Source: Candidatus Iainarchaeum sp.
GTDB lineage: Archaea; Iainarchaeota; Iainarchaeia; Iainarchaeales; JAZDDZ01
DNA length: 64,000 nt
Direction of reading: 5' to 3'
Assembly: GCA_043809245.1 (NCBI GenBank)
Contig: JAZDDZ010000008.1
Span: 1-64,000 of the forward strand
Part shown: in pieces, positions 142 through 16,448 of the stretch
Position numbering within the stretch: the stretch's first letter is position 1
Layout of the letters: every line of letters begins with the position of its first letter
The notes under the pieces: model-generated
Database searches by the model: none
Told to the model about the DNA's origin: nothing
The model's input: only the letters and a program-made list of their open reading frames with translations
Made by a program: the position numbers and the translations under genes

Positions 142-304
142 GATTTAATATAACGTAAAAGACAACTGATATAAGGCCAGCCACAGAGTAATTAAAAAAG
201 CCGTTATCCAGTGAGGCTTTTGCTTTTTCTGCTGCAAAAGTTTCCTCAGGATTGGTAACTGAATTAATCCAGAGATTTATCCGATTTTTCCATTCAGCAT
301 TCAT
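142..304 (-). pseudogene. Yip1-domain-like membrane protein, N-terminal part interrupted by ISL3
   Basis: WINSVTNPEETFAAEKAKASL followed by a hydrophobic helix resembles a Yip1 N-terminus; the frame runs into the IS end at 141. Confidence 0.6.
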
Positions 305-350
305 TTAATCTATGTTGTTTATTCAGATATAAAAAGCTATCTGATTAATT

Positions 351-869
351 TCACTGATTAATTGCGAGATTTTGAGGAGCATTCGCCTCTACATCTTTCT
401 TTTTCTGCTGCTTTTGTTCGCCGAAGTATTCAGTGAATTTTTTTGTGGTGTAAAGTACGAAAGTGATTCCTTTTTTTTCACGCCTGATAAAGCCCTTTTC
501 ATTGAGCATGTGAATGTGGTCATAGGCTTTTGTGTTGCGGTATTTGATGACATCAGCCTGCTTTATGGGCTGCTTGTAGGCAATCAATGCAAGTGTTTTC
601 ATCACGCTTTTGTTGAATTCGCTTGAAGCGGCTAGATGCCGAACCTTTTGCTCCAAATCGGGCTTGAGCCCCATGCGATAGCCTGCCGGCTCTTCCTTTA
701 TCTCCAAAGCTGAATCCCTTTCAAGGTAATTGCTTGAAAGCTCGTTCAATGCCATCCTTGCCTCTGCAATGCTTACTCCTGAAATCCGCGCTAGCTCGTC
801 AACAGGCATGTGCGTTGGCGCAATGAATAAGGCGGCTTCAATTGTTTTCTTGGTTTCCTGCAATTCCAT
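351..869 (-). CDS. scpB: SMC-ScpAB complex subunit ScpB
   Basis: IEAALF, KTLALIAYKQPIKQADV, YTTKKFTEYFG motifs. Confidence 0.93.
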   Translation of the reverse strand: MELQETKKTIEAALFIAPTHMPVDELARISGVSIAEARMALNELSSNYLERDSALEIKEEPAGYRMGLKPDLEQKVRHLAASSEFNKSVMKTLALIAYKQPIKQADVIKYRNTKAYDHIHMLNEKGFIRREKKGITFVLYTTKKFTEYFGEQKQQKKKDVEANAPQNLAINQ

Positions 870-952
870 TACCAGCCTTTTATTATTCTTACTTATTTAA
901 TTATATAGTAAACTTATATTAATTTATTAAATTAAATGCTCCAGTGCTTTGA

Positions 953-2107
953 ATGCAGGCAGAAAAACTGAAAATCGGTGAAAAAGAGGTCTTTCTTGTA
1001 GGCACAGCGCATGTTTCAAGCGAAAGCGTGGAGCTTGTGAGGAAAACCATTGAAAAGGAAAAGCCTGACGCGGTTGGAGTGGAACTTGACCTTGAACGCC
1101 TTAACCAGCTGAAATCCGGGGAAAAATGGCGTGAAACAAACATTGTGGACATAGTGAAGCACGGAAAAACATACCTCTTTCTCATCAACTTGTTGTTATC
1201 CAATTACCAGCGCAAAATCGGAAGGGATTTGGGGGTCATGCCCGGAGCCGAAATGCTTGAAGCAGTCAAGGCAGCTGAAGAAAAAGGCATTCCAATTGAA
1301 CTGCTTGACAGGAGCGTAAAGGTTTCATTGAAGCGCGCCTTGAATGCAATGGGCTTGATTGAAAAGGCAAAGCTTTTCTTCAGCCTTTTCATTGGCTTGT
1401 TTGAATCCGAAAAAATTGAGCTCACAGAGGAAAAACTAAAGGAGTTAAAAGATAAGGATGTGTTGAATGAACTGCTTGCCGAGCTTTCAAAAGAGTTTCC
1501 TGCGATGAAAAAGGTTTTGGTTGATGAGAGGGACGCGTTCATTGCGCAAAAAATCAGGGAGTCACGCGGAAAAAAAGTCGTGGCAGTTGTCGGGGCAGGG
1601 CATGTTGAAGGCATAAAAAAATTAATGCAAAAGGAAAGCGACTTAAATGAACTGCAGAAAATGCCCATTGAAAAAAACTATCTTGCTGCAGTCGGCTGGC
1701 TTATCCCTGTTTTGTTCATTGCATTGTTTGGGTATGCTTTTTTCACTAAAGGAATTGAAACAAGCCTCATTGTTTTGCTTTCCTGGGCAGCAATAACAGG
1801 CATTCTTGCAGCGATTGGCACAGCGCTTGCCGGGGGCCACATTTACTCCATTCTAACCTCGCTTGTGGCGGCGCCGATAACCACGCTGCATCCCTTGCTT
1901 GCAGTGGGATGGTTCGCAGGCTATGTAGAAGCCAGGGTAAGGGTGCCAAAGGTCAAGGACTTTGAATCACTGCACGCAATTGAATCATTAGGCGACTTGT
2001 ACAAGAACCAAGTCACAAGAATTTTAATGGTCACAGCGCTCGCGAATTTAGGGGCAACAATCGGCACGCTGATTGCCTTCCCCTACATTGCGGGGCTGGT
2101 GCTCTAG
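953..2107 (+). CDS. TraB/PrgY/GumN family protein with C-terminal TM helices
   Basis: LVGTAHVS, VGVELD, PGAEM, LVDERD, VVGAGH motifs. Confidence 0.9.
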   Translation: MQAEKLKIGEKEVFLVGTAHVSSESVELVRKTIEKEKPDAVGVELDLERLNQLKSGEKWRETNIVDIVKHGKTYLFLINLLLSNYQRKIGRDLGVMPGAEMLEAVKAAEEKGIPIELLDRSVKVSLKRALNAMGLIEKAKLFFSLFIGLFESEKIELTEEKLKELKDKDVLNELLAELSKEFPAMKKVLVDERDAFIAQKIRESRGKKVVAVVGAGHVEGIKKLMQKESDLNELQKMPIEKNYLAAVGWLIPVLFIALFGYAFFTKGIETSLIVLLSWAAITGILAAIGTALAGGHIYSILTSLVAAPITTLHPLLAVGWFAGYVEARVRVPKVKDFESLHAIESLGDLYKNQVTRILMVTALANLGATIGTLIAFPYIAGLVL

Positions 2108-2170
2108 CGAATGATGCTGCAGGCAAACATATAAATATGACCTGCTGTATAATTATATTAGTGGTATAAT

Positions 2171-2383
2171 TTGTCCAAGGCAGTTGTTGTTGTAAGGAAA
2201 TGGGGCAATTCGATTGGCATAACCCTGCCTATTGGCGTGGTTAAGCGTGAGAAAATCAAAGCTAATGATGCAGTGGTTATAACTGTGGAAAAAGCAGCGC
2301 CCCTTGAAAGCCTTTTTGGCACGCTTAAAACAAGGCATTCCACCAAAGAAATAATGGGCGAGATAAGGAAGGGCTGGGATTAA
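2171..2383 (+). CDS. AbrB/MazE-type antitoxin
   Basis: RKWGNSIGITLP swapped-hairpin motif; coupled to a PIN gene. Confidence 0.88.
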   Translation: MSKAVVVVRKWGNSIGITLPIGVVKREKIKANDAVVITVEKAAPLESLFGTLKTRHSTKEIMGEIRKGWD

Positions 2384-2751
2384 TGCCTGATTATTTTGTG
2401 GACACTTATGCATTGGTTGAATTTTTCAGGGGAAACCGCGCATACAAAGGGTATTTCCTGAACAAGGGAATTGTTACCTGCCGGCTTAATCTGATGGAAC
2501 TTTATTACAGCGCGCTTATTGAGGGCGGCGAGGAATTGGCTGAGAGATATTATGAGTCCCTTCTTTCAAAGGTTGTTGAATTCGGCGATGAAACAATAAA
2601 GAATGCGATGAAACTCAGGTTTAAAGACAGGGCGAAAAAATTTTCCTATGTTGATGCAGTAGGCTACGAGATAGCGCGGGAATTGAAGATAAAATTTCTA
2701 ACCGGCGATAAGGCATTTAAGGGAATGGAAAACGTGGAATTCGTAAAATGA
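2383..2751 (+). CDS. vapC: PIN-domain (VapC-like) toxin
   Basis: FVDTYALVE, SYVDA, LTGDKAF PIN motifs. Confidence 0.88.
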   Translation: MPDYFVDTYALVEFFRGNRAYKGYFLNKGIVTCRLNLMELYYSALIEGGEELAERYYESLLSKVVEFGDETIKNAMKLRFKDRAKKFSYVDAVGYEIARELKIKFLTGDKAFKGMENVEFVK

Positions 2752-2754
2752 TGC

Positions 2755-2799
2755 CTATCGGGTTTCACCTGAAACAAGCGAAATGAATATTTCCCCGAA
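2755..2799 (-). pseudogene. scpA: Displaced original 3' end of scpA (FGEIFISLVSGETR*)
   Basis: Minus-strand reading through the att core gives F-G-E-I-F-I-S-L-V-S-G-E-T-R-TAG, matching the scpA terminus FGEIFISIVK*. Confidence 0.85.
2782..2799. repeat. att core, left copy (AATGAATATTTCCCCGAA)
   Basis: Exact 18-bp direct repeat with 13475-13492. Confidence 0.92.
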
Positions 2800-3025
2800 G
2801 AATAGTGTATTAGGGGGTTAAATATTTTCCTTTTCCTTGTTTCTTGCCATTAAAAAGGGGCTTTTTTATACCACTACTATATACACTGGCTGCTTTACCT
2901 GGGCCTTAAAACTTTCTAATGATTGGTTCAGCGTATTTTCCACCTGCAATTAAGCGGGCAAAAAAATCAGCGTGCCTTTCAGAATCTTTTTTGAAATCAA
3001 TCAATGAAACCACCACCTGTTTTTG

Positions 3026-3976
3026 TTAAAGATTTAATTCTTTATATGTGTTTTTAAAAGAAGCCGATATTCCAATGGGTTTAACTTGCGCTAAGGCCCT
3101 CTCCCTTAAATCATTTAAGATTTTTATGTTCTCCTTTTTGTGCGTCATTGCCTTGATTGCCTCAAAGTTTTGAATGAAAAAAAATGGGAAGCCCTGGACA
3201 GCTTCACTAATAGTTGGGTAAACCTTTTTTTCTTCAAATATTTTTTTGGTTTCCTTTGGATCTACTTGTTTCCCAGGGTATTCTTTGATAACCCCATTTT
3301 CTAAATTAAAAGTTGAACCTTTAATTTTTTTTACTATATCCATAAAGGTTTTGTTTTCCCTAAACTCTTTCCGCATATGTAAATTCTGAACCCATTCCGA
3401 AAAATCCGTGGTTTTGAAATAAAGCTCAATAATTTTTTCTACAAACGCACTTTTTTTCTTATATTCTGGTTTCACCATATCCTGTAAACTTATTTTTTCA
3501 GGCGCATCAGGCAGATTTATTTTGTTATCAGAATAGTATCCATCCCTTTTGTTATCAGAATAGTATCCCTCCTTTTTTCTCACAAAGGATATTGTTATTG
3601 TTGGATGATCATCTTTCAATTCAGAATGGTATAGGCTCACAAAGCAGTTGAGGGTTAATTTTTGGAAATTAACTGAATAATATTTTTCTTTCAAATCTTT
3701 TGAATGGCCTGTTATGTAATCAGCTTTTTCAAGCAAGTAAACCCTTTCGGAAATAGTAGGCTGGCTTTTCCCCAAATGCTCTGCTAATTTTTTTTGGCTA
3801 TCAAAACCTTTTACTATTGAAAAGAGTGTTTCACCAAATTCCCTGCTAATCCTTATGCCTTTGTATTTTTTAAGAATCTTAATGGCCTTGGGATCCTCTC
3901 TAATTTTTTTAATGAGAAATTCATCCCGCATAAACTCTTTCATATACCCTTCTCTCCTTATTGATCTGTCATGCAT
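3026..3976 (-). CDS. Winged-HTH regulator (putative element repressor); start may be 3943
   Basis: SQKKLAEHLGKSQPTISERVYLLEKADYI HTH; divergent from the replication operon. Confidence 0.7.
   Translation of the reverse strand: MHDRSIRREGYMKEFMRDEFLIKKIREDPKAIKILKKYKGIRISREFGETLFSIVKGFDSQKKLAEHLGKSQPTISERVYLLEKADYITGHSKDLKEKYYSVNFQKLTLNCFVSLYHSELKDDHPTITISFVRKKEGYYSDNKRDGYYSDNKINLPDAPEKISLQDMVKPEYKKKSAFVEKIIELYFKTTDFSEWVQNLHMRKEFRENKTFMDIVKKIKGSTFNLENGVIKEYPGKQVDPKETKKIFEEKKVYPTISEAVQGFPFFFIQNFEAIKAMTHKKENIKILNDLRERALAQVKPIGISASFKNTYKELNL
3520..3568. repeat. 27-bp-period in-frame tandem duplication (GYYSDNK twice)
   Basis: TTTTGTTATCAGAATAGTATCC at 3520 and 3547. Confidence 0.9.
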
Positions 3977-4142
3977 CTATCTATTACTAAACACAATACA
4001 TTTTAAAAATATTGCCTGGCGCTTTAAACTGCAAATAGTTGCCTATTACTGCTTTAAAATGGCAATAAACCATTTATAGCTAATCGCTCTTAATTGGCTA
4101 TGAATGGATTTCTTTTTAATTATTTATTGCTGAAAGTAATAT

Positions 4143-4328
4143 ATGTCAGAGCTGAAACCGCAAACCTGTGCCAAATGCGGGCAAATATTAATGGATAAAG
4201 CCTATTTTGAGCAAATACACAACAAGCCATTTCTTTATGCCTTACAGCAACTTGAGCTCTGGCAATCGTTAAAAGAAGAGGGAAAAAAGCATGGAAAAGG
4301 ATCAAAACAAGGGCCTGAGCAAGATTGA
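4143..4328 (+). CDS. Small hypothetical protein with CxxC
   Basis: First ORF of the rightward operon; CAKCG motif. Confidence 0.55.
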   Translation: MSELKPQTCAKCGQILMDKAYFEQIHNKPFLYALQQLELWQSLKEEGKKHGKGSKQGPEQD

Positions 4329-6198
4329 GGCCTCTATTTTCAGGCAATACGAACCTATTCTGGCAAAAGATTGCGTTTATAACTGTTTAAAGGAAACCCT
4401 ACATAATGGCCAGGTAATCAAGGAAAACCTGTTTAATTGTTATGAGTGCTATAAGGGGAAGGGCCAGAATCGCATTATTCTGATAACCCAAATGCAGGAA
4501 AGCCTGCCCCTGGGAGAAATAGAGTTGTGTTTTGCCCCATTGAAAATAATGGAAACCCAGGCTGGAAAAGAATTTGAGCTCATAGAGGAATTCAAGCCAT
4601 ACATTGAGCTTTATGGATTAACAAAGATCAGCCCTAAAAACTTGATTGAAGGCATTAAAGAAGAGGCAGTAGAAAAAGAAATTTTCCTAACCCCTGAGAT
4701 GTTAAAGGAAAAAATCTGGGAGGGCCTGAAAGACATTGCCTGGGGCAACAAAGAAGGCATATATAGCAAACTATTCTACAAAAAAATCCCTCCAGTGGAT
4801 ATCAATGCGGTTTTAAGGTTTTCAAACAAAGAGGCAAATGAAAAAATTGATGCATTCATTGATGATAACTGCAACAAGGATCCTGTAATAAATTATTTAT
4901 TCAAGCATTCAGTTTTGTTTCCAAATATCAATGTGGTGAAACCCCATAGATATCAACCATTTAACCCTCATCAAATTTTGATTACCAATTCTGGAACCGC
5001 TAAAACAACCACTGCAGAAAAATTCGGAAGGGTATATGAGAACGCCTCAATCATTGGCCTGGTGGGATATGCGGATGCTCAAAAGATTTGCTATGGAACT
5101 CTTCATAACTCCTATCAGGATATTGCGCTTGATGAACTTGAGGCGGTCCAGGAATCGGATATTTACTCCAAGTTTTTGAAAATTTTGCAGGATGGAAAAA
5201 CCACTTCCGCAAAGGCAGGCAGAGAAATCCCATGTAGAAGCTGGAGCCCTCTTAGAATAATGAGCAACCCCGTGAGATTGAGAGCTCAAGAAAGCCTTTT
5301 TATAAACGATTATGAGCTTGTGCAAATTTTTGAGGATCTTATTAACTGCATTACCAAAAACCCAGAGGCCCTGGGCAATAGAATTCCCATAGTGCTTTTC
5401 AGCAAAAAAATAAAGGCATTGAAGAAAGGCGCTGCAGTGCATCCCCTTGAAGAAATTGAAAGGCTTCAGAAGTATGTGCAAACCTTAGGAGAGCTTGCGA
5501 AAACAAATTATTCCAGGCTATTCAATGAACAGAGAGTTGTTGAATGGTTGAGACAAGGTTATCCAGAGCAGTATGAGAAAGAGGTTAAGGCCTTAGCTGC
5601 AAGCGAAGAGGATGCAGGCTTCCAAGTGTTCAGGGATTTTCTAAATGGCTCAGTTGAAGGCTCTGGGGCCACACACTGCAGAGGTTTTGCCCTCAAGCAA
5701 GCCTGTGTGGATTCCATAATGGATTTAATTAACGGAAGGCACGATATAGGAAAACTACTCAAGGATGCGGATTTCCACTTCCAAAAAATCTTAGGGATAA
5801 ACCTGAAATCCTTTGAATCTATTGTGGAGATAACCCAAAAGCAAAACCTCATGGCGCAGTTAGTGGAGAGTAGATTCCATGCCCTGGCAAAGGAAGGCCA
5901 GATCCTGTGCAGTGTTTTAAAACAATTCCTGGCGAAAGAGCTCCCTGAATCAAGGGAAATCATTACTGATTCATTCCAGGCCCTTCTCTTGGAGAATGAG
6001 GCATTCAAAGGCACAGGAAGGAGCCTCCCCACCTATTGGAGCAGGCTTTTCAAGCAGAGGAAGAGGCTGAACCTGCAATTCATGGCCCTGGGCTTTGAGT
6101 TGGGCCAGAGGAAAACAAAGGTGGGAATGATCCAATTCGTTAAAATTCTGGATGAAGCACTGCTTAAGCTCCTAAAAACAGGGGAGGAAACGAAATGA
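4291..6198 (+). CDS. Divergent MCM-like AAA+ helicase
   Basis: Walker A NSGTAKT, ASIIGL, Walker B IALDE, pre-sensor hairpin TTSAKAG, sensor-1 IMSNP, candidate Arg finger ALGNRIP. Confidence 0.8.
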   Translation: MEKDQNKGLSKIEASIFRQYEPILAKDCVYNCLKETLHNGQVIKENLFNCYECYKGKGQNRIILITQMQESLPLGEIELCFAPLKIMETQAGKEFELIEEFKPYIELYGLTKISPKNLIEGIKEEAVEKEIFLTPEMLKEKIWEGLKDIAWGNKEGIYSKLFYKKIPPVDINAVLRFSNKEANEKIDAFIDDNCNKDPVINYLFKHSVLFPNINVVKPHRYQPFNPHQILITNSGTAKTTTAEKFGRVYENASIIGLVGYADAQKICYGTLHNSYQDIALDELEAVQESDIYSKFLKILQDGKTTSAKAGREIPCRSWSPLRIMSNPVRLRAQESLFINDYELVQIFEDLINCITKNPEALGNRIPIVLFSKKIKALKKGAAVHPLEEIERLQKYVQTLGELAKTNYSRLFNEQRVVEWLRQGYPEQYEKEVKALAASEEDAGFQVFRDFLNGSVEGSGATHCRGFALKQACVDSIMDLINGRHDIGKLLKDADFHFQKILGINLKSFESIVEITQKQNLMAQLVESRFHALAKEGQILCSVLKQFLAKELPESREIITDSFQALLLENEAFKGTGRSLPTYWSRLFKQRKRLNLQFMALGFELGQRKTKVGMIQFVKILDEALLKLLKTGEETK

Positions 6199-6290
6199 AG
6201 AAATTGGAGCCTATACTGGTTTTTTGGTTTGATCCTTTGGATGGCCCAAAGTTTACTGTGTTGTTTGATAAAAAGGAGGAAAAAAAATGA
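6195..6290 (+). CDS. 31-aa microprotein
   Basis: ATGA overlap with the helicase stop, GGAGG upstream; MKKLEPILVFWFDPLDGPKFTVLFDKKEEKK. Confidence 0.5.
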   Translation: MKKLEPILVFWFDPLDGPKFTVLFDKKEEKK

Positions 6291-6415
6291 ACCCCCCCAC
6301 CTTGCTTGGCAAAATGGCTAAAATGGCTATTATGGCTGGCGTTTTCCAGCTAAATTCAGTAGCCAAATTAGCCAAAACAGCCTTTTTGCCAGGGCAGGTA
6401 GGGGCTCTTTTTTTT
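6279..6415. repeat. Symmetric inverted array of GGC/GCC boxes, candidate replication origin
   Basis: GGC at 6308/6316/6325/6334 and GCC at 6362/6371/6380/6388 (spacing 8,9,9 mirrored as 9,9,8); flanking A- and T-tracts. Confidence 0.6.
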
Positions 6416-6443
6416 AAAAATCAACCATTGGAGGTGGTTTTGA

Positions 6444-6767
6444 ATGTCTTTAAAGAGAAATAGAGGGATAACTCAAGCGGATTATCTGGCGGCAGGATTT
6501 GATGAAACCGAGCCGACGGAGCCGACAGCAGCAGAGAAAGCGGATGGATTGCAGCAAGCCTTTGACAAGGCACAAGCGAAATGGCAGGACATACTGATTA
6601 TGGTGGGGAATGGTAATTGCTTGATGCAGTGCAATTTCACGCCGACAGATTTGAGAGCATTCATTGATGACATCAAATACATGGAGAAAATGGGGCAGGA
6701 TGCGATTGATGGAATCAAAGAAATGATTCAGCGAATAGAAAAGGAGGAACCGAATGAACGAAAATAG
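6444..6767 (+). CDS. Hypothetical protein
   Basis: GGAGGTGG RBS; operonic. Confidence 0.7.
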   Translation: MSLKRNRGITQADYLAAGFDETEPTEPTAAEKADGLQQAFDKAQAKWQDILIMVGNGNCLMQCNFTPTDLRAFIDDIKYMEKMGQDAIDGIKEMIQRIEKEEPNERK

Positions 6768-7056
6768 AACCGATCTGCCTTTTCTGGCAGCAAAATATGA
6801 TGCTATTGGTGTGCCATTCAAGCATTTGCTTGAAGTTGTAATGGGCAAAATTCCAGGCACAGGCTGGTATCCTATTCAAAAAAACAAGAAGGATGTTGGT
6901 TTGCTGTGTTTTGAACTTTCAAAAGACAAGGAAACTCTTTGGGTTAGTTTTCTTTGGCACGACTTGGAATGGGAAAAGCATGAATTGAAAGAAAAAAAAA
7001 GATTGCTTGAAAGACAACCACTGGAGGCGGTTTTAAATGCAAAAAAAACAAAATGA
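6754..7056 (+). CDS. Hypothetical protein
   Basis: GGAGG RBS; overlaps both neighbours. Confidence 0.65.
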   Translation: MNENRTDLPFLAAKYDAIGVPFKHLLEVVMGKIPGTGWYPIQKNKKDVGLLCFELSKDKETLWVSFLWHDLEWEKHELKEKKRLLERQPLEAVLNAKKTK

Positions 7057-7384
7057 AAAAAAGAATGAGAAAGAAATACGGATAGCAGCCATTGAATGGG
7101 TTAATGCAAAAATTGCAAGGCTAATGAATGAAATGGTTGCATTGGAGGAAGCCCACAGCAAAGCAAAAAAAACAGCGAGATCAATAAAGGATCTTAACTT
7201 TGTTCAGGCCCTTGTTAAGCAAAACCTTGAGCGTTGGGAGCGCCTTGATGAGGAACTATTAAACACCGAAATGGATTATGGAGAGGCAAGAGCTTTCATT
7301 TGTGCATTCCAGCCAGGCCAGGGAATTAATAAAGCCATTCTCGGAAATCCCCCGAAAGAATTGGAGGAAGATGAAGATGATTGA
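7037..7384 (+). CDS. Hypothetical coiled-coil protein
   Basis: GGAGG RBS; helical heptad pattern. Confidence 0.65.
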   Translation: MQKKQNEKKNEKEIRIAAIEWVNAKIARLMNEMVALEEAHSKAKKTARSIKDLNFVQALVKQNLERWERLDEELLNTEMDYGEARAFICAFQPGQGINKAILGNPPKELEEDEDD

Positions 7385-8438
7385 AAACAAGGGAAACCTA
7401 AACGAAGAGGCTATTAGGTTTTACTATAAACAATTACAGCACGAAGAGGAAACAGAAATAAGGCATGGCATAGAAAATAATTTTTCATCAGATTTCGTGC
7501 ACAGCGCAGATGCTTTTCTTTATGTTTGCCAGCGCTGGAATGGCATTCATAACATATACGCTGGCCTGAATGAAAGAAAACAGGGGGGCACAAAAAGCGA
7601 GCATGTTATAACCGCAGATAAATTCAGGCTTGATATTGAAAGAAAGGAAAGCAAACGAAAGGCAACAGAGGAAGAGATAGATAAAGCTGAAAAAGTTGCG
7701 GATAAAATCATGCTGTGGTTTAAAGAGCAGGGTTTTGATGAACCGCTTAAAGCCTTTACTGGAAATGGCTTTGCTTTGATCTGCTATCATAAGCCATTCA
7801 AAGAACTGAATCAACAAAAAAGAAACAGCATAGCAGAAAAATATAATTCCTTTTTTGAAATGGTAAAGCAAAAATTTGAAACAGAGGATATAAAGATTGA
7901 TAAAACACACGATCTGGCGAGAGTGGATAGGGTAATTGGAACCTGGAACCTTAAAGGGGAGCGCTTGAGTTTTTTCTGCAATGCCCAGGGTTTTGAAAGA
8001 AAGGATAACCTGAAACTGATTGAATTCTTTGAGGGTTTAAAGATTGAAAAGCCAGGAACAGCAAGGGGAAGCCAGGCAAAGGTTAAATTAACTGCCTGGG
8101 AGATTTTGCGGAAAAAACACCCTGATAATCAGGAGCGCTGCAGTTGTGTGCTGAAAATATTCAACAGGCAAAGGGCGAAAGGATGGGGTGTGAATGAGAT
8201 TTGCGAGTATATTGCAAAGAATTGTGTATGGGATGATTATGATCCTGTGCGAACAAGAACCATGATTGAGGATTATTTGAGCAGATATTTTGAGAATCCC
8301 AATCCTTTAACGCAAAAGAAGGCGTTCAGGCTCCGCTATGATTGCGAATGCGGAAGGGTTTATTTTCTGGCCCCTATTAGTGAACAGGTGGTTAATTGTT
8401 CTTGCGGAAAACTTAGGAGAGTTGTTGTTTATGGTTGA
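7377..8438 (+). CDS. AEP-superfamily primase-polymerase-like protein with C-terminal Zn ribbon
   Basis: Motif I-like RLDIE, motif II-like FTGNGF, motif III IDKTHDLARVDRVIGTWN; C-terminal CECG...CSCG; start placed after GGAGG. Confidence 0.75.
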   Translation: MIENKGNLNEEAIRFYYKQLQHEEETEIRHGIENNFSSDFVHSADAFLYVCQRWNGIHNIYAGLNERKQGGTKSEHVITADKFRLDIERKESKRKATEEEIDKAEKVADKIMLWFKEQGFDEPLKAFTGNGFALICYHKPFKELNQQKRNSIAEKYNSFFEMVKQKFETEDIKIDKTHDLARVDRVIGTWNLKGERLSFFCNAQGFERKDNLKLIEFFEGLKIEKPGTARGSQAKVKLTAWEILRKKHPDNQERCSCVLKIFNRQRAKGWGVNEICEYIAKNCVWDDYDPVRTRTMIEDYLSRYFENPNPLTQKKAFRLRYDCECGRVYFLAPISEQVVNCSCGKLRRVVVYG

Positions 8439-8578
8439 ATTGAATTGCCAAAAAAACGCAAATAATGGCGTTTTGCCCTATACCTTGCTATCCTTAAACA
8501 AAATCTTAACGCTTACATACAAGTTATTTAAATGCTCTTTTAACTGCCTGCTTAAACAAACGCCAGAGGGGTGTTCTA

Positions 8579-8890
8579 ATGAAAATTAGGCACAGGGCCT
8601 TTGATTGCCTCAATAAACCCAGGTATAACATCTTACTGGCTTTAAGGGATGTTTTGCTTGAAGTAAGGGAGTTATGCCAGGCCACAGGTCTGAGCTGGCA
8701 TAATTGTTATTATCATTTGGAGATCTTGCAAGAAAAAAAACTGGTTGAAAAGATTGCATCAAAAAAAGAGAACCTTTCAAGGAAAACATACAGGAAAGAA
8801 AGGCCAGTGAACAGGTTCAAATTAACACAGTTAGGCTCTGAGGCGCTTGAATATTTTCCTAACTCTAAATTAGGGGGAAAATATTTATGA
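8579..8890 (+). CDS. ArsR-like winged-HTH protein
   Basis: PRYNILLAL...VRELCQATGLSWHNCYYHLEILQEKKLV...FKLTQLG. Confidence 0.8.
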   Translation: MKIRHRAFDCLNKPRYNILLALRDVLLEVRELCQATGLSWHNCYYHLEILQEKKLVEKIASKKENLSRKTYRKERPVNRFKLTQLGSEALEYFPNSKLGGKYL

Positions 8891-9027
8891 ATATGGAATG
8901 CAGGGCAAGACTAAGGGCATCCAATGCTGCCCATCCCTCTTCCCTGCACATATTGGACAGCAAGTTATGGTTTGGCTTGCTGTTCCTATTCCTCCATAGG
9001 GGCGCAAGAATTGGATGTCTTGCGCCC
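8890..9027 (+). ncRNA. Putative structured RNA: three stem-loops with a predicted loop-loop pseudoknot
   Basis: Stems 8890-8910/8938-8954, 8957-8967/8973-8983 (with G-U pairs) and 9000-9009/9018-9027; loop ATTGGATG is complementary to CATCCAAT (8918-8925). Confidence 0.6.
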
Positions 9028-9056
9028 ATTTCCTCTTTTCAGGCAGTTGATCTCAA

Positions 9057-9233
9057 ATGAATTTGAAAAGAAACCTTTACAGGAAAGGAAATAGTTTTTT
9101 CACAGGAATCCCAATCCAGGCCCTGGGTAATTTGAACAAAGAAAAAAAATATTCTGTTCTCTGGGTTTTTGATCCTAAAAAAGATTGTTGGGAGATTCGT
9201 TTTGAAGAAAGAAATGAGGAGGGGAAAAAATGA
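9057..9233 (+). CDS. AbrB-like small DNA-binding protein (58 aa)
   Basis: MNLKRNLYRKGNSFFTGIP resembles a swapped-hairpin start; ATGA-coupled. Confidence 0.6.
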   Translation: MNLKRNLYRKGNSFFTGIPIQALGNLNKEKKYSVLWVFDPKKDCWEIRFEERNEEGKK

Positions 9234-9349
9234 AAGTTAAATTCACTTGCTGCTCTTGCGAGCAGCGAATAACAAAAGGTTCAGGCAAGCGCCTGATTGT
9301 ATGCAATTCTTGCCATGAAAAGCTAACAGAAAACTTGGCGGTGGTTTGA
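9230..9349 (+). CDS. 39-aa zinc-finger microprotein
   Basis: CCSC...CNSC; GGAGG RBS; ATGA overlap. Confidence 0.55.
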   Translation: MKVKFTCCSCEQRITKGSGKRLIVCNSCHEKLTENLAVV

Positions 9350-9459
9350 TGCAGCGGGAACGGGTTGCGCAGTGCGAAATGTGCCGAGAAAAACCAGTTA
9401 AAGTTTTTTTTGTGGGTTGCCTTTGGCTTTGTGAAACTTGTTTAAAGGAGGGAGAATAA
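9349..9459 (+). CDS. 36-aa zinc-finger microprotein
   Basis: CEMC...CETC; TGATG overlap. Confidence 0.55.
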   Translation: MQRERVAQCEMCREKPVKVFFVGCLWLCETCLKEGE

Positions 9460-9849
9460 ATGCCCACTGCATTTGAGCAAAGATTGAAAGACAAATCCAA
9501 AAGAATGATTTTGAACCTTGACGCTTCAAGCCAAGAAGAACTTTACTCGGAGATTGCGAAAATGGAGGAACACGGTTTCAAGTTATGGCGAGTTAAAGAA
9601 TATCAAACAGAGTTTTTTGGAGGTATTAAAGCGGTCTTAATTCGTGGAATGTCTGAAAAGGATGAAGACGCGTGCTTGTTTTGCGGAAAGGAAGTGTTGC
9701 AAAATGGGGTTTTTCTAACGCCTTTAAAACCCACTGGAGAGTCTACAAGGATTTGTTTTTCTTGCTTGGATGTTTTTAATTTTTTGCAGGCAAGGTTTTG
9801 GGAAAAGAAGAATAAAATTAAAAAACAAAAAAAGGAGGTGAAAAAATGA
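9460..9849 (+). CDS. Hypothetical protein with C4 zinc finger
   Basis: CLFC...CFSC (ClpX-type spacing). Confidence 0.7.
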   Translation: MPTAFEQRLKDKSKRMILNLDASSQEELYSEIAKMEEHGFKLWRVKEYQTEFFGGIKAVLIRGMSEKDEDACLFCGKEVLQNGVFLTPLKPTGESTRICFSCLDVFNFLQARFWEKKNKIKKQKKEVKK

Positions 9850-10013
9850 ATGATTTAAAATTAATGAACGAATACGCGCAAAAGCGGTTTGCGAAAGCCG
9901 AGAAAAACAAAAAGCGACCTTTAAGCGCTTTTGAAACGTGCCAAATGATTGAGATAATTGAAAACGAAATCAAGCACGGGTTTCATTTACCTAAAAAGGA
10001 GGAAAAAAAATGA
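9846..10013 (+). CDS. 55-aa microprotein
   Basis: GGAGGTG RBS; ATGA overlaps at both ends. Confidence 0.55.
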   Translation: MNDLKLMNEYAQKRFAKAEKNKKRPLSAFETCQMIEIIENEIKHGFHLPKKEEKK

Positions 10014-10924
10014 ACGAAGAAAAGCAAAGAACAGATGTAATGCCTTACTTGGTTGCACATTCGCCTTTTCTGGCGGATGTTTGGCGACAGGTTCACCGAA
10101 ACAAAGGCTCGCAAATAATTTTAGTGAATGGCCTGCCGAGAACTGGAAAATCCGAGCTTTGTTTGGTTTTTGCCCACGCATTAGACCCGAACTTTTCAGT
10201 GCAGAATAATGTTGCGTTCAACAAGCTGGAATTTTTGCAGTTAGTGCGAAAAAACAAATATGTTGGCGCGGTGAACATTTGGGAGGAAGCAGGGTTAATG
10301 GAATACGGTGCAAGTGCCAGAGAGTTTTGGAGTGCGGATAACAGGCGAATGAGCAGCTTGTTTCAGTCAATGGGTTTTCACCGCCAAATTTGCATTGTGA
10401 ACCTGCCTCAAAAAATAATGCTGGACAAGCACTTGAGGTCGCTGTGCCACTGGATTGTGGAAACAAAAAGCATTGACGTGCAAAGAGGAAAAGTGAAGTT
10501 TAAGGTTTTTCACATTCAGCCAAGCGACAAAATTTTTTACAAAAAATATATCAGGGTTTTTGAAGATGGTGGCGTGACAAAGATTATGTCTTTTGTTGCC
10601 CCAAGACCCCCACAGCATATTCTGGAAGAATACTGGGCGAGGGAAAAATTGTTCAAAGACATGGTTTCGGATAACTTGGAGAAGGAAATGCTGGAAGAGG
10701 AAAAAAAACCTAACGATAGCGAGACAAGGAAGCTGACCACGCAGAAGAGAAACGCTGCATTGGTTGAAGCGATTGCCAAAGAGCCTAAAGCGTTCAGCAA
10801 GCCAAAGAAAAACAAGTTGGAATTGAACGCTGACTTGATTGCAGGCACATTTGGAATTTCTGTGCCAACGGCAAGGGTAATTAAAGCGCTTTACACGCAA
10901 CAGCACGGCGAAGTCAAGATATAG
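10010..10924 (+). CDS. Zot/viral packaging-like P-loop ATPase with C-terminal HTH-like tail
   Basis: Walker A GLPRTGKS, Walker B NIWEEAG, IVNLPQKIMLDKHLR. Confidence 0.72.
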   Translation: MNEEKQRTDVMPYLVAHSPFLADVWRQVHRNKGSQIILVNGLPRTGKSELCLVFAHALDPNFSVQNNVAFNKLEFLQLVRKNKYVGAVNIWEEAGLMEYGASAREFWSADNRRMSSLFQSMGFHRQICIVNLPQKIMLDKHLRSLCHWIVETKSIDVQRGKVKFKVFHIQPSDKIFYKKYIRVFEDGGVTKIMSFVAPRPPQHILEEYWAREKLFKDMVSDNLEKEMLEEEKKPNDSETRKLTTQKRNAALVEAIAKEPKAFSKPKKNKLELNADLIAGTFGISVPTARVIKALYTQQHGEVKI

Positions 10925-11048
10925 GAATAAAAAAAAAGCAAATAACATTTGCCTTCCTATTAATGACTTGTATAGTGGTTTCGGCGTGGCGTTCTTTCCT
11001 TGACTTAAACATAAAACCTTTTTCTGCTTTTCGCAAGCATTTCTTTGT

Positions 11049-11801
11049 ATGGATTACTGCAAAAATTGCGAAACCCGCTTGTGCTGTAAAAACATAGCAT
11101 TGCCTGTAGAATTGAGCATATTTGATATTTACCGAATAGCCAAAGATAAAGAAATTAAGTTATCCGATTTGTTTTCTACGCAATGTGCTCTTATACCCGT
11201 TAAATCAATTCACCCCTATTTTGCAATATGGTTCAGTTTTGGGATACACTGTTCTTTTCTAACTGATACGGGGTGTGCTTGCCATAAAGTGAAGCCAGTA
11301 ACTTGCATGCAGTTTCCCGCTTCAATTATATTCCAAAGAACAATTGATGATTATTCTATGTATCCCTGTGAGAAATTTGTCTTGCCTGAACAAGACTCCC
11401 TTAATGATTTGAGTCAATTTCACAGGAAAGAAATGCGCAAACATTATGCGCTTGTTTTTAATAACAGGATTCCAATTCTGCCTGTTAAAAATCTGCCAAA
11501 AAAAGAACTGGCTGAAATACTTGCTAATGATTCTAAGATATCGGCTTTGAATATATCTCAAACTAAAAGAAATGAATTGGCATTAGAGTTTATGATTCCA
11601 TTAGCAAATAATCTTATGATGAAATCCGATTTGACTTATGAATTTCATTTTGAGGATGGTCGCTCTGAAGAAATTACTGTAAATTTATGGCAGCATAGTC
11701 TTGAACGAATAAAAGAAATTGAACAGAATAGAGGTTTCACACAGCAGGCTGAATTTTATTCAAGAAAATATTCTAAGATTAGAAAAAAATACATGATATA
11801 A
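11049..11801 (+). CDS. YkgJ-family cysteine-cluster (Zn/Fe-S) protein, cargo gene
   Basis: CKNC...CC, CSFL...CACH..KPVTCMQFP. Confidence 0.8.
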   Translation: MDYCKNCETRLCCKNIALPVELSIFDIYRIAKDKEIKLSDLFSTQCALIPVKSIHPYFAIWFSFGIHCSFLTDTGCACHKVKPVTCMQFPASIIFQRTIDDYSMYPCEKFVLPEQDSLNDLSQFHRKEMRKHYALVFNNRIPILPVKNLPKKELAEILANDSKISALNISQTKRNELALEFMIPLANNLMMKSDLTYEFHFEDGRSEEITVNLWQHSLERIKEIEQNRGFTQQAEFYSRKYSKIRKKYMI

Positions 11802-11986
11802 CACAAAAGATTAACAGCCCTTTGCACGGCGGGGGGGCAGTTTAAAACTTTTTCAAGATTGGCTCACAGGCTTACATTACCGCCTCGTTAATAGTATAGT
11901 GGCACACCCCCCTATTCTTTATATTTAATTTAAGTTAGAAATAGAGCCTGTTTTTTTGGCCTTTGCTTAACTGAAAGAGTTTATTG

Positions 11987-13423
11987 TTATTTTGCATCTA
12001 CTTTTTGCCTTAACTCTGAAATCTCTTGCCTCATTTGCTGCATTATTTCAACCACTGCCCTGTTATCAAGCTCTTCAATCTGTTTGCTCTTTCTATCCAG
12101 ATCTAATGCAGCCTGAATAGTTAGGGGAGTAGAACATTGTAAGCAAAATTTTTCACTTGGAGAGTTTTGCTTTCCGCAAATTTCGCAGGTTTTGGGTTTC
12201 AAAACATCTTCCTCTTCCTCTCCTTTTTCCAAGAGCCCTGCCTGTTTCAATATGGCTTTATCTAAATCCCTATGGCTCAAATGCACATACACTTTAACCA
12301 TATCTGAATCACTGCCCCATCCAGCGAAAAGCCTTAACTCAGATTCAGTTAAACTTTTGGCAAGCTCTGTTAATCTTGAATGCCTCATTAAGTGGGGCCA
12401 TATTGGTTTAGTTTTAAACCCTGCTTGCCTTGCAGCATTCTTCAGCAAGCGGTTTAAGTTGTTTACTCCAAGCCTGGCTTGTTCTTTGCTCCTTGTTGAA
12501 TCAGCAACCCAAAGCGGGGCATCAGGTTCATCTTTGAATGGGTGGATGGAAAGCCATTGGGCAATGTAAGGAATTGATTTGATTAACCTTATGGGCCTAT
12601 CGCCAGTTTTACCGCTTACAACAATCATATAGGAATACTTGTCTTTTTTCAGCGAACCCACATCTAAATCCAAAAACTCCGATGCCCTTGCAGCAGATTC
12701 GTAAAGGCAGGATATGATGGCCTTATTCCTAATGTTTTTTTCTTTATCAATCAAAGCAAGGATTTCTTTCGGATAATAAATATCTTTCGGGAGCTTTGAT
12801 CTATCCCTGTCAATTTTAATCCATTCAACAATTTCCCCTTTCTGCAGCCATTTGAAAAAACACTTTATCTGGGATTTGAAAGTGCTGATTGATTTTTTTG
12901 CATACCTTTGCTTTTCAATGGGGGCAAATTTATCAGGATCCTTTCCAATAAAAGTTAGTGTGTGCGGAACAGGTTTAGGCGCTGTGTGGCCTGGTGTTAA
13001 AGCGAAATCATCAGGGCATTCTTTTGCGATATTGTTCATCATGGTTCTTGCATAAAAACGAGAAATCTTAAAATGCTCTCTAACTTGGGGAGAAGTTATC
13101 TTTCCCTTTTTTGCAACCATTCTTTTAAGATCCAAAACCTTGCCATAGTTTTTTTTCCTCATTCGGCCTAACTCATTCACAAAGCCAATCAATTCTTCCT
13201 TACTCATTTTTTTGAATGGCTTGCTGAGGTAATGATCTAACTGGAGCATGGTTTTCAGGAAGTGGATCCTGGTTGAGGGAACCTTTCCATTAGTGCCTAT
13301 GCCTTGGGCCTCTCTTTCAGCATCATACTCTAAAATGAGTTTCTTGTTTTCCGCAGGGATGTGTGGGTTATCCTTAATTTCCTGTATTGTTCTGTTCAAA
13401 TAGCCTGTTTTATCGTCAGCCAT
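11987..13423 (-). CDS. int: Tyrosine recombinase/integrase with C-terminal Zn ribbon
   Basis: Catalytic residues: SAARASE (R), GKTG (K), HLMRH, GW, VYVH (Y); CEIC...CLQC; adjacent to att. Confidence 0.93.
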   Translation of the reverse strand: MADDKTGYLNRTIQEIKDNPHIPAENKKLILEYDAEREAQGIGTNGKVPSTRIHFLKTMLQLDHYLSKPFKKMSKEELIGFVNELGRMRKKNYGKVLDLKRMVAKKGKITSPQVREHFKISRFYARTMMNNIAKECPDDFALTPGHTAPKPVPHTLTFIGKDPDKFAPIEKQRYAKKSISTFKSQIKCFFKWLQKGEIVEWIKIDRDRSKLPKDIYYPKEILALIDKEKNIRNKAIISCLYESAARASEFLDLDVGSLKKDKYSYMIVVSGKTGDRPIRLIKSIPYIAQWLSIHPFKDEPDAPLWVADSTRSKEQARLGVNNLNRLLKNAARQAGFKTKPIWPHLMRHSRLTELAKSLTESELRLFAGWGSDSDMVKVYVHLSHRDLDKAILKQAGLLEKGEEEEDVLKPKTCEICGKQNSPSEKFCLQCSTPLTIQAALDLDRKSKQIEELDNRAVVEIMQQMRQEISELRQKVDAK

Positions 13424-13440
13424 ACCTATTAGGGTATGGC
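13419..13440. promoter_or_regulatory. Palindromic operator over the integrase start codon
   Basis: GCCATACC-N6-GGTATGGC; TATA-like TTTAAATA on the minus strand at 13447-13454. Confidence 0.55.
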
Positions 13441-13459
13441 AACAAGTATTTAAACCCTG

Positions 13460-14188
13460 CTATTTCACTATGCTAATGAATATTTCCCCGAACCAGTCGT
13501 CTTGCCATAGCGTGATTTTGCCTTTGTTGTGAAGGAACAGGCAGGGGATGAATGTGTCCACTATTTTGTAGGAGTTTGTTTCAGAGCCGTTTATTAGGCG
13601 GGAGAAAAGCACTAAGCCTTGGCTGTCCGCGTTTTCTTTGATTTTTTCAAAGACGACCTCCATTTTTTCGTCAATGTTTTCGGAAGCGAAAGGAATCTTG
13701 AATTCAGGCACTTCAATCGGCCTTTCCTTTAAGCGTTTCTGCTTTGTTTTTTCAAGCACGGCTTCAATGCTTTCAACAAGTTCATCCAATGAAATTCTGC
13801 CTTCCTTTATTTTTTTGATGTTCATTAATTCAGGCAATTCTGAGTCAAGCTGCCAAAGCTCCCTTTGCCTTGCCTCCTCTTGTTTCAGGAACTCGTCATC
13901 CTCATCCAAATCGCTTAAGCGCAGAACACGGCTCTTGAACTTCAATAGAATTGCGGATGCAAGGATTGCATTTGCAGGAAGCCTTAAATCAGTGTTTTCA
14001 AGCGCTGAGATTTTCTTGATGTATTTGTCCGCCAATTCAGCTATGTCAATGCCCCATGCATCCATTTTCTCTGATTTAACCAAGTCAAGCAGAATTGTTT
14101 TCCATGCAGGCTGGTCTATGAGGTCCACTAAGTCTATTTTTCCTTCGTGTGCCTGCACTTCAGCGTTAAAAGAAGCCTCTTCAGCCAT
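13460..14188 (-). CDS. scpA: Segregation and condensation protein ScpA (kleisin)
   Basis: MDAWGIDIAELADKY, AILLKFKS, LFLHNKGKITLWQDDWFGEI. Confidence 0.92.
   Translation of the reverse strand: MAEEASFNAEVQAHEGKIDLVDLIDQPAWKTILLDLVKSEKMDAWGIDIAELADKYIKKISALENTDLRLPANAILASAILLKFKSRVLRLSDLDEDDEFLKQEEARQRELWQLDSELPELMNIKKIKEGRISLDELVESIEAVLEKTKQKRLKERPIEVPEFKIPFASENIDEKMEVVFEKIKENADSQGLVLFSRLINGSETNSYKIVDTFIPCLFLHNKGKITLWQDDWFGEIFISIVK
13475..13492. repeat. att core, right copy, inside scpA
   Basis: Exact match to 2782-2799. Confidence 0.92.
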
Positions 14189-14243
14189 ATAGAAAATTAA
14201 GGGTGTGGAAGGTATTTAATCCTTTTATCCCTCTTTTTTAGTC

Positions 14244-15122
14244 ATGGAAGGCAAATTAGGGGAAGGCATGAAAAAACGCCTTTTGGAGGCGCAGAAAAAC
14301 GAGATAACCGAGCATTTGATTTACAAGCGGCTTTCATGGGCGACAAAGGACAAGCCTAACAGCGAAGTCCTTGAGGCGATTTCAAAGGACGAATTAAAGC
14401 ATTACAACCAGTGGAAAGCACTTACAGGCGAAAACGTTAGGCCTGATGCGCTGAAACTGTCCTGGTTTGTCTGGGTTTCAAGGATTTTCGGGCTGACTTT
14501 TGGCGTAAAGCTCATGGAAAAAGGAGAGGAAGGCGCTCAAAAAAATTACTCGGAGATAGCGAAAACAATTCCAGAAGCAAAAGCGATTTTGGATGACGAG
14601 GACAGGCATGAAAAGGAATTGGTTGCAATGATTAACGAGGAAAGGCTGCAGTATGTGGGCTCAATTGTTTTGGGCATAAATGACGCGCTGGTTGAATTAA
14701 CAGGCGCTTTGGCTGGCTTCACGCTTGCACTGCAGAACTCCGCCATTATCGCAATGGTGGGGCTGATAACCGGAATTGCCGCTGCGCTTTCAATGGGCGC
14801 CTCGGAATACCTTTCAACTAAAACAGAGAAAAACGTGAAGAACCCGAAAAAGGCGGCAATTTACACTGGCTCGGTTTACATGGTTACTGTTCTCTTGCTT
14901 GTGCTCCCGTTCTTTGTTTTTTCAGAGGTTCTTGTCTCGCTTTTCTTCACGCTTTGCGTTGCTGTTGCAGTTATCTTCATTTTCACGTTCTATGTATCCG
15001 TTGCACAGGACATTAATTTTCGTGAAAGGTTTCTGGAGATGGCATTGATTAGCTTGGGTGTTGCAGCAATCAGTTTCGGCATAGGTTTTCTTGTGAGGAT
15101 TTTTTTGAACATTGATGTGTGA
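14244..15122 (+). CDS. Rubrerythrin-like domain plus VIT1/CCC1 iron transporter
   Basis: ExxH motifs; VLGINDALVE; SMGASEYLS. Confidence 0.88.
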   Translation: MEGKLGEGMKKRLLEAQKNEITEHLIYKRLSWATKDKPNSEVLEAISKDELKHYNQWKALTGENVRPDALKLSWFVWVSRIFGLTFGVKLMEKGEEGAQKNYSEIAKTIPEAKAILDDEDRHEKELVAMINEERLQYVGSIVLGINDALVELTGALAGFTLALQNSAIIAMVGLITGIAAALSMGASEYLSTKTEKNVKNPKKAAIYTGSVYMVTVLLLVLPFFVFSEVLVSLFFTLCVAVAVIFIFTFYVSVAQDINFRERFLEMALISLGVAAISFGIGFLVRIFLNIDV

Positions 15123-15615
15123 GCTTAATGATTTTTTTCACAACCTGTTCTTTGTTGAAATCCGCAGGCACCTTAACGGTTAAGCCAGCGTATTTTTTGT
15201 AAAGCGCAAGCCTTTCGTCGAACAGTTCTTCCAAACTTTTGTTTTTTAAGCCGACAATTCCCCTTGTATCGCGGTTTTCTGTCCTTGAATAAATGCTTTT
15301 GAAGGGTGCGTCAAGGAAAACGATTAAAGAATTTTTCCGAAGCGAATCCATTGCCTTAGCGCAGTAAACAACGCTTCCTCCGGGTGAAAAAACGCACTCA
15401 CAGTTGTTTTTTTTCACACAGCCAATGACCGCCGCCTCCTCGATTTTGATAAATTTTTCATAGCCGAATTTGTCGATTATCTGCTGCAGCTTCATGCCTG
15501 TCTTTTCCTCAATTGTGCGGTCGGAATCAATGAAGCGGTAGCCAAGCAATTCCGCCAGTTCTTTTCCAATAACGCTTTTTCCCGAACCGGGCATTCCAAT
15601 CAGGGTTATGTTCAT
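15070..15615 (-). CDS. aroK: Shikimate kinase, bacterial AroK type
   Basis: GMPGSGKS, FIDSD, SPGGS, ERLALY. Confidence 0.85.
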   Translation of the reverse strand: MNITLIGMPGSGKSVIGKELAELLGYRFIDSDRTIEEKTGMKLQQIIDKFGYEKFIKIEEAAVIGCVKKNNCECVFSPGGSVVYCAKAMDSLRKNSLIVFLDAPFKSIYSRTENRDTRGIVGLKNKSLEELFDERLALYKKYAGLTVKVPADFNKEQVVKKIIKLTHQCSKKSSQENLCRN

Positions 15616-15708
15616 TTGCAGACCTTTCCCAGTAGCCTAATCAAAAGAAAGGGTTAAAAAAAGAAGAAGCTTTAATTTATCGGGAAATTTGTTTTAGGGG
15701 GTTTTTGT

Positions 15709-16422: not shown

Positions 16423-16448
16423 AAAAAAATTAGAGCCGCCGGATTCGG

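Follow-up and report, generated by a model that had tools for sequence, protein, structure and literature searches.

The scpA locus and its duplicated end

The window analysed here, that is the whole 64,000-nt stretch of DNA from Candidatus Iainarchaeum sp. (contig JAZDDZ010000008.1 of assembly GCA_043809245.1), contains the kleisin gene scpA; directly behind its 3′ end lies an element of about 10.7 kb with its own tyrosine integrase gene, at the far side of which a second, displaced scpA end is found. An exact 18-bp direct repeat marks both places, at 2782-2799 and 13475-13492 on the same strand, and the minus-strand translation of both copies is FGEIFI, in frame. The features that define the two junctions are listed here (att, attachment site; HTH, helix-turn-helix; ORF, open reading frame; G056, a genome of the same order that is described below).

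13460..14188, minus strand: scpA (kleisin), a hybrid gene of 242 aa whose last four codons and stop are element DNA
13475..13492, minus strand: att core, right copy, inside the working scpA at the junction of scpA body and element, encoding FGEIFI
13460..13474, minus strand: element-supplied tail SIVK plus stop, the same in 15/15 nt as the tail beside the G056 integrase
2782..2799, minus strand: att core, left copy, at the far junction between the left arm of the element and the displaced host tail
2755..2781, minus strand: displaced scpA tail SLVSGETR plus stop, an orphan without gene body
2800..13474, no strand assigned: integrated element of about 10.7 kb between the two copies of the exact 18-bp repeat, with the integrase at its right end
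2800..2845, minus strand: left arm of the element adjoining the core, conserved with G056 and holding a second core-like AATATTT[T/C]CC
11987..13423, minus strand: tyrosine integrase, 478 aa, matching PF00589 with 48.7 bits (cut-off 27.1) over residues 219-383
13447..13454, minus strand: TATA-box-like TTTAAATA in the gap that separates the integrase gene from the scpA stop, 24-31 nt before the integrase ATG

The scpA product matches the Pfam family SMC_ScpA (PF02616) with 44.5 bits (cut-off 24.6; 2.4e-11) over profile positions 1-231 of 232, and its C-terminal end reads WFGEIFISIVK before the stop. The left core copy translates as FGEIFISLVSGETR followed by a stop, with stop codons eight codons upstream and no scpA body, and FGEIFI-SLVSGETR plus stop at 2755-2799 is a displaced scpA end. 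It follows from the topology of repeat and host gene that the last four codons and stop of scpA are element DNA and that 2755-2781 is the displaced tail. The DNA after the core is unlike between the two copies, and S-[I/L]-V is common to both tails. In all these points our results agree with an initial annotation of the window, made from its sequence alone, which had reported the FGEIFI-encoding repeat at 2782 and 13475, a working scpA that ends in FGEIFI-SIVK on element DNA, and two tails that differ in DNA and keep S-[IL]-V.

The repeat is unique in the genome. The window holds two copies and no third at up to two mismatches, none occurs elsewhere in the 1.48-Mb, 55-contig genome at up to one mismatch, and not one of 100 dinucleotide-preserving shuffles had two or more matches to the 18-mer with up to two mismatches allowed. 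The G+C content is 0.33-0.34 at both ends of the element versus 0.43-0.46 in the flanks, and the core region shows only weak dyad symmetry.

The integrase

The integrase gene lies on the scpA strand, with its start codon 36 nt past the scpA stop, and its ORF is intact and of full length (homologues have 481-484 aa). The protein has a clade-specific N-terminal domain and a C-terminal zinc-ribbon-like CxxC...CxxC arrangement, which reaches 19.6 bits, below cut-off, with Zn_Ribbon_1. Its nearest solved relative is the archaeal XerA 4a8e (phmmer, E 9e-12). R, K, HxxR and Y are kept in the alignment of the two, with a W at the place of the second His; the residues facing their XerA counterparts are the R in ESAARASE, the K in SGKTG, HLMRHS, the W in FAGWG and the Y in VKVYVHLS. 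We take R, K, HxxR, H/W and Y to be the catalytic residues of tyrosine recombinases, and on this alignment the set is complete in the window integrase, which is predicted to be active in attP x attB recombination. The TATA-like box upstream of the gene has conserved counterparts in G056 and in two further genomes of the order, G013 and G106, and TTTAAATA may be regarded as a putative integrase promoter.

Close relatives of the integrase are few: among 5.8 billion protein clusters there are three at 68-69% identity, followed by one at 38%. The integrases of G056 and G013 are 69-71% identical to that of the window over their full length. That of G013 carries the label 'Candidatus Diapherotrites archaeon', in agreement with the DPANN placement that the initial annotation had suggested. 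A search of genome contigs with the integrase alignment returned only the G056 record and one unrelated bacterial match, no homologues were found in metagenome contigs, and viral contigs gave no match for the integrase or for a 635-aa protein of the element described below. The public protein record of the window integrase has 391 aa, 82% of the ORF, and the homologues have 99% coverage; the public gene call probably begins too late. Elsewhere in the same genome, locus L034 (G000:C4:39000-42929) carries a paralogous integrase with 43% identity over the catalytic part; a tRNA-Cys gene (tRNA at 1101-1173) precedes the start of this integrase by about 330 nt, which suggests a classical tRNA-linked element at that place.

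The same integrase clade at scpA in related genomes

In a comparison set of 196 genomes of the same order, some match to the integrase occurs in 142, and the close matches are confined to G056 and G013. On the 99.7-kb contig C3 of G056, kaiC is followed by an scpA that ends in WFGEIMISIVK plus stop and, 38 nt later, by an integrase gene (about 69% identity); roughly 12.6 kb past the integrase lies an orphan scpA end, FFGEIFISIQKAGK plus stop, with stop codons before it. The DNA of the SIVK codons and stop is identical in 15/15 nt between the window and G056, the ensuing promoter region is similar, and the core-adjoining left arm is conserved as well. Among the proteins of the two elements only the integrases match at E < 1e-4; the other cargo is unrelated, that of G056 including a terminase large subunit (phrog_2, 3e-49) and a scaffold-like protein. 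In G013, the end of contig C10 carries scpB and, further on, an integrase gene (about 70% identity) and then an scpA-type site, FFGEIFISTVKE plus stop, without an scpA body, whereas the end of contig C5 carries kaiC, an scpA ending in QMTNE plus stop and a second integrase gene (33% identity) that is cut by the contig end. The two contig ends would fit two different elements in tandem.

The association with scpA is specific to the close homologues. When 29 integrase loci of relatives were inspected with 1.5-kb flanks, an scpA-type site lay beside both of those at about 70% identity (2/2) and beside none of the 27 distant ones, and none of the three paralogues in the window genome itself has such a site. 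The initial annotation had held that the element is adapted to scpA, a claim that gains from the finding that both readable integrases of about 70% identity sit at the same site with the same element tail DNA. It had also named two observations that would speak against it, namely integrase homologues without association with scpA, where an association was in fact found, and uninterrupted relatives ending in SIVK, of which no clean case was found. Window-type SIVK tail DNA with one or two mismatches occurs in G106:C82, in orphan 1 of G102 and in G068, in G106:C82 and G068 within scpA. Relatives ending in SIVK thus exist (G056 and G106:C82), but neither is cleanly uninterrupted: scpA of G056 is interrupted by the homologous element, and G106:C82 carries element-type tail and flank DNA. 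Taken together, these comparisons support the view that this integrase clade, which spans three families, preferentially targets the scpA 3′ end.

Orphan scpA ends and short inserts across the order

A degenerate codon pattern for FGEIFI gave 106 matches in 82 of the 196 genomes, versus 12 for a backwards control, and in ten genomes one contig carries two or three copies on the same strand, 0.4-10.7 kb apart. The contexts of the matches were compared with the scpA coordinates, known in 185 of the 196 genomes, an orphan being defined as the motif with a short S/Q-x-x... tail and a stop but without gene body; this context reading covered the matches other than those at G150:C34, G168:C61, G175:C3, G127:C93 and G133:C63. 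Orphan scpA tails were found in at least 17-19 of the 196 genomes, G132 and G024 being less certain. Extra pattern matches on other contigs, of which 25 loci were read, comprise six true-looking orphans, an ambiguous case (L084) and 18 that are due to chance or lie within other genes. At the class level the pattern search took in 19 more genomes, with no duplicates. G102 has three orphans within 3 kb, and in G106 three orphans are spread over two contigs.

Some of the orphans lie in arrays, spaced by inserts of 0.4-5 kb which hold one or two genes, lack an integrase and end in scpA-end repeats; the inserts presumably originated by integration. The insert genes encode Fic/DOC, MNT-HEPN, PIN, ParE and DUF6036 proteins, several of them of toxin-antitoxin type. 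Metabolic-looking genes occur in the inserts of G109 (L080 534-1790; asparaginase family) and G015 (L085 8755-10251; PEP-utilizer mobile domain). Two inserts in genomes of different families, G068 (L074 6888-8992) and G106 (L077 1278-3160), have two genes in common. One encodes a 213-aa protein without a family assignment (81% identity), the other a Fic/DOC protein (75% identity), and in G106 an extra scpA-end repeat separates the two. In G058, contig C22 (L071) has an uninterrupted scpA with scpB behind it, and contig C21 (L070) has an occupied copy, where two scpA ends flank a 2.1-kb insert whose single product is a 547-aa DUF6036 nucleotidyltransferase/HTH protein. Downstream, C21 and C22 are similar but not identical in DNA, and the two contigs may represent two strains. 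We also observed three relatives (G040:C14:17172-17819, G045:C80:10639-11169 and G121:C5:5-514) in which scpA runs into a contig end at the att motif or before reaching it, as would be expected if the coexistence of occupied and empty versions causes assemblies to break.

The orphans differ from a simple copy of the host gene in two ways. They have FF-GEIFI also in genomes whose scpA gene has WF-GEIFI, and their left arms are non-host DNA of two conserved types, each common to several genomes and found across different families. The left arm of the window type recurs in G056, in orphan 2 of G102 (a 14-nt motif with one mismatch) and in a metagenome locus, L114. The latter, on a 32.7-kb contig, was the one metagenome locus found with a left-arm-plus-core pattern, which had no match in viral contigs; it represents a junction of element left arm and host tail rather than a free attP, and a Fic-type homologue follows its orphan.

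One could assume instead that homologous recombination or local duplication produced the repeated scpA ends of the relatives, with the scpA end serving as a passive anchor for the exchange of islands. The housekeeping-like insert genes of G109 and G015 would suit such a process, as would the result that the loci fetched around the short inserts yielded no integrase ORF. We nevertheless consider it unlikely in view of the conserved non-host left arms of the orphans, in two types across families, of the FF-GEIFI of the orphans where the host gene has WF-GEIFI, and of the integrase-bearing full elements at the same position in three genomes. Because of the orphan tails and arrays of the relatives, the scpA end is rather, as judged from sequence, an order-wide integration hotspot that has been repeatedly used by various elements.

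A tentative extension of this integration hotspot, which we think possible but would not favor, is that the scpA 3′ end constitutes an order-wide accretion platform, at which the integrase-less inserts of 0.4-5 kb are cis-mobilisable cassettes moved in trans by the integrases of full elements. Equally tentatively, each insert would then end in an scpA-end mimic with its own conserved left arm. The insert genes common to G068 and G106, at the same site in two families, lend support to this idea. If it were true, reduced-genome archaea would have an integron-like route to gather and exchange toxin-antitoxin and defence-type genes.

The arrays also bear on the history of the window itself. The initial annotation had called the tail at 2755-2799 the displaced original end of scpA; it is displaced, but whether it is original is less certain, since the tandem arrays of relatives make an earlier element possible. 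The SLVSGETR tail might then derive from an earlier, decayed element, of which the VapBC pair in the host flank would be a remnant, and the present element would be at least the second occupant. Relatives with up to three orphan tails (G102) or tandem elements (G013) set a precedent, the inserts between orphans often carry PIN, ParE and MNT-HEPN toxin-antitoxin genes, and a PIN/MazE pair abuts the window orphan. On the other hand, the stretch from scpB to 2755 contains no third core-like copy, whether sought by a loose peptide pattern or at up to four DNA mismatches, and the comparison set has no genome of the same family. On balance, we regard an earlier occupant as doubtful though quite conceivable.

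The ScpA C-terminus

A ScpA model built from 36 sequences has a C-terminal winged-helix domain (pLDDT, predicted local distance difference test, 83-93), whose last two strands are residues 225-229 and 236-240. Foldseek matches this domain to ScpA C-domains bound to SMC heads, 4i99_C with a template-modelling (TM) score of 0.85 and 5h66_C with 0.82. Since the last strand is residues 236-240, the core encodes a turn and the first half of that strand. The residues exchanged are S239 and I240 (L in the orphan), plus the tail beyond the fold, so that I for L is the sole change within the strand. By hand count of 35 distinct in-gene tails in the order, S stands at +1 in 24/35 and L, I, M, V or F at +2 in 33/35, and these natural tails have 4 to 25 residues or more (two further genes were left unparsed). 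The element-supplied tails SIVK, STVKE, QMTNE and QLTKESD follow the same loose pattern.

The initial annotation had gone further and proposed that integration and excision switch the ScpA tail functionally. In such a regulated switch the element would toggle ScpA between SIVK and SLVSGETR and thereby change the behaviour of condensin. The exchanged segment does belong to the SMC-head-binding winged-helix domain, as the fold matches indicate, S239 and I240 lie in its last strand, and the genome has both scpB and an SMC-like ORF. However, only residues at the end of the last strand change, I for L, natural tails vary widely and have in common no more than S-[hydrophobic], four other element-supplied tails fit the loose pattern, which looks like mimicry that keeps function, and no excision was seen in the one sparse sequencing run available (6% of words). 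We therefore do not retain the switch, which we judge very improbable. Because the element-supplied tails follow the loose pattern of the natural ones, we read the element tail as mimicry that preserves ScpA function, the exchange being, as far as the model goes, presumably neutral.

As for the partner genes, the SMC-like open frame (1523 aa, contig C24) is matched by three profile pieces, each below the whole-protein cut-off. Within this gene (G000:C24:848-5245; L115-L117) the matches at SMC profile positions 43 and 37 are separated by about 1.6 kb without a match, which might represent an intein or a different insertion close to the P-loop.

Gene content of the element and its flanks

The remaining genes of the element and those of the host flanks are as follows.

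351..869, minus strand: scpB, host flank, matching SMC_ScpB (1.2e-33)
2171..2751, plus strand: VapB-like (MazE_antitoxin) and PIN-toxin pair, host flank, directly abutting the displaced tail
3026..3976, minus strand: 316-aa winged-HTH protein at the left end of the element (HTH_24 6.6e-4, below cut-off)
4291..6198, plus strand: 635-aa P-loop protein, MCM-like helicase as a lead only (Atlas structure neighbours are MCM families, TM 0.43-0.48)
7278..8438, plus strand: 386-aa primase-polymerase-like protein, a lead only (Atlas feature neighbours DNA_primase_S and PriCT_1)
8579..8890, plus strand: 103-aa ArsR/HTH_5-type regulator (HTH_5 23.3 bits, cut-off 22)
10010..10924, plus strand: 304-aa P-loop ATPase (phrog_5484, 'DnaA-like replication initiation protein', 6.5e-5; AAA_18 and AAA_16 weak)

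The 635-aa protein has no Pfam or PHROG match, nor does the 386-aa protein match any profile, and their MCM-like and primase-like character comes from language-model and predicted-structure neighbours, those of the 386-aa protein being N-terminal parts of primase-helicases (TM 0.56-0.65). The 386-aa ORF overlaps a 115-aa ORF (7037-7384) by 107 nt, and its true start is probably at 7371, because the Atlas version of the protein begins at residue 32. The single-sequence fold of the 304-aa ATPase was unusable (pLDDT 42.5). A CxxCxxCC protein is also encoded. A PHROGs scan of ten element ORFs gave weak matches or none; no terminase, capsid or portal gene was found in the window element with Pfam and PHROGs, and no relaxase, type IV secretion or conjugation family in the same scans, from which ORFs shorter than 58 aa were left out.

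The left host flank carries scpB, a TraB-family gene and the MazE/PIN (VapBC) pair, and the right one the scpA body with a KaiC-like gene further on. Opposite-strand genes already separate scpA from scpB, so the insertion breaks no operon. A 2236-aa ORF (16449-23159, minus strand), 2 kb from scpA, has an N-terminal membrane segment and repeated beta-rich segments.

Proposed mechanism and its appraisal

The anatomy of the locus, its exact repeat, an intact integrase and an int/att module that is conserved at scpA in other genomes are all directly observed. With these in hand, we consider it highly probable that the window contains an integrative element that inserted site-specifically at the 3′ end of scpA and restored the end of the gene. 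In the mechanism that we envisage, a self-replicating integrative element of about 10.7 kb would enter the chromosome by conservative site-specific recombination between its att site and the identical 18 bp, or a shorter stretch inside them, that encode FGEIFI at the scpA 3′ end. Comparison of the window and G056 copies places the crossover probably within TTCGGNGAAAT. The att site of the element would mimic the scpA end (F-FGEIFI-SIVK-stop, with the integrase promoter directly after it), and by virtue of this mimicry insertion would rebuild a complete scpA. The old tail would be left as an orphan 10.7 kb away, and in the kleisin winged helix a conservative swap would affect no more than the two terminal residues of the final beta-strand. 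By the same route the element could presumably still be mobile today.

Several observations weigh against this reading or limit it. The sole public sequencing run, from groundwater, holds 0.06 of words and has no excision or empty-site reads; over 1-16500 it yields ten contig pieces, short and of low depth, and no joints. The source of the window is a metagenome-assembled genome, so that mis-assembly is conceivable as far as reads go, and the 196-genome set is without the same family or genus, hence without the lineage's own uninterrupted scpA end. The integrase clade is tiny, with three relatives, of which those of G056 and G013 lie at an scpA-type site and the third is P0003, on a 25.7-kb contig, and an integrase stands beside scpA in only 2 of 29 scpA loci of relatives. 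To these one may add the 18 chance or within-gene pattern matches, the short inserts whose fetched surroundings are free of integrase ORFs, and the MCM-like and primase-like assignments, which are leads only.

The first two of these points raise the question of whether the arrangement could be an assembly artefact, or the repeat a chance one and the 10.7 kb ordinary chromosome. The source genome is a metagenome assembly in 55 contigs, and the one sparse run has no reads across the junctions. Nevertheless, none of the 100 shuffles had two matches, the repeat is unique in the genome, and both copies are in frame for one conserved motif. An 18-bp repeat is moreover an unlikely cause of mis-assembly because it is shorter than assembler k-mers, and the same architecture, with homologous integrase and arms, is present on a 99.7-kb contig of an independent genome (G056). 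An artefact is hardly credible in the face of this, and integration at scpA remains by far our preferred explanation.

Comparison with known systems

In kind, the event is a known one, a site-specific integration that restores the end of a gene; the target and the integrase clade are new. A full-text search of the literature, the scope of which stopped short of supplementary files (e.g. of the provirus survey PMC13573593), found nothing on integration into the kleisin gene scpA, the matches to 'scpA' being the streptococcal peptidase gene or unrelated. Integration targeting scpA thus appears to be unreported, as does an integrase clade of small-genome (DPANN-type) archaea that is dedicated to this gene. 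The region downstream of scpA is a place to seek mobile elements and toxin-antitoxin or defence-type cargo in poorly known archaea, orphan tails being a record of successive invasions, and the integrase together with a short core in a conserved coding motif offers a defined pair for recombination assays.

Another type of archaeal integrase can be set aside. In the 'suicidal' SSV-type integrases, as portrayed in PMC7253208, the att site lies within the integrase gene, which is split on integration. These enzymes and the window integrase are both archaeal tyrosine recombinases of integrative elements, but we rejected an SSV-type element here because the integrase gene is intact: the 478-aa ORF is whole and the core lies outside it, 51 nt upstream of its start.

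Protein genes are not without precedent as targets in Archaea. The review PMC8371274 lists attB sites of BJ1 in an HMG-CoA reductase gene, of Msmi-Pro1 in a cation-efflux gene and of NitGar-E6 in an AsnC regulator gene, with recombination tested at none of these intragenic sites and with scpA not among the targets listed there. Like the window element, these three have a non-suicidal tyrosine integrase and direct repeats inside a host ORF. They differ in that the target here is scpA, served by one integrase clade over three families at a recurrent hotspot with orphan arrays. The dusA-specific integrases of bacterial prophages and genomic islands, according to PMC4482086, form a dedicated family tied to one conserved protein gene across many genomes, much like the scpA clade. 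The dusA system is bacterial and uses the 5′ end of its gene, whereas the window element is archaeal and uses the 3′ end of scpA, and the two are likened by description, not by integrase sequence.

ICESt1 and ICESt3 of Streptococcus thermophilus integrate at the 3′ end of fda, where integrase-less cis-mobilizable elements (CIMEs) have accreted in tandem. The scpA site resembles theirs in being the 3′ end of a housekeeping protein gene at which att-flanked, integrase-less arrays stand beside full elements. Differences are the archaeal host and the lack of conjugation genes among those found in the window element by the Pfam and PHROG scans.

Finally, the sites of archaeal tyrosine recombinases lie mostly in tRNA genes, according to the review PMC8371274. 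Integration into tRNA genes and the tandem tRNA islands that result have much in common with the situation at scpA: a conserved 3′ end, a replacement end supplied on insertion, and repeated use that leaves repeats of partial genes. The tRNA sites are held by RNA structure and the scpA site by protein-level selection on FGEIFI in the last strand of the winged helix, and protein-level conservation can thus fill the role that tRNA structure has elsewhere.

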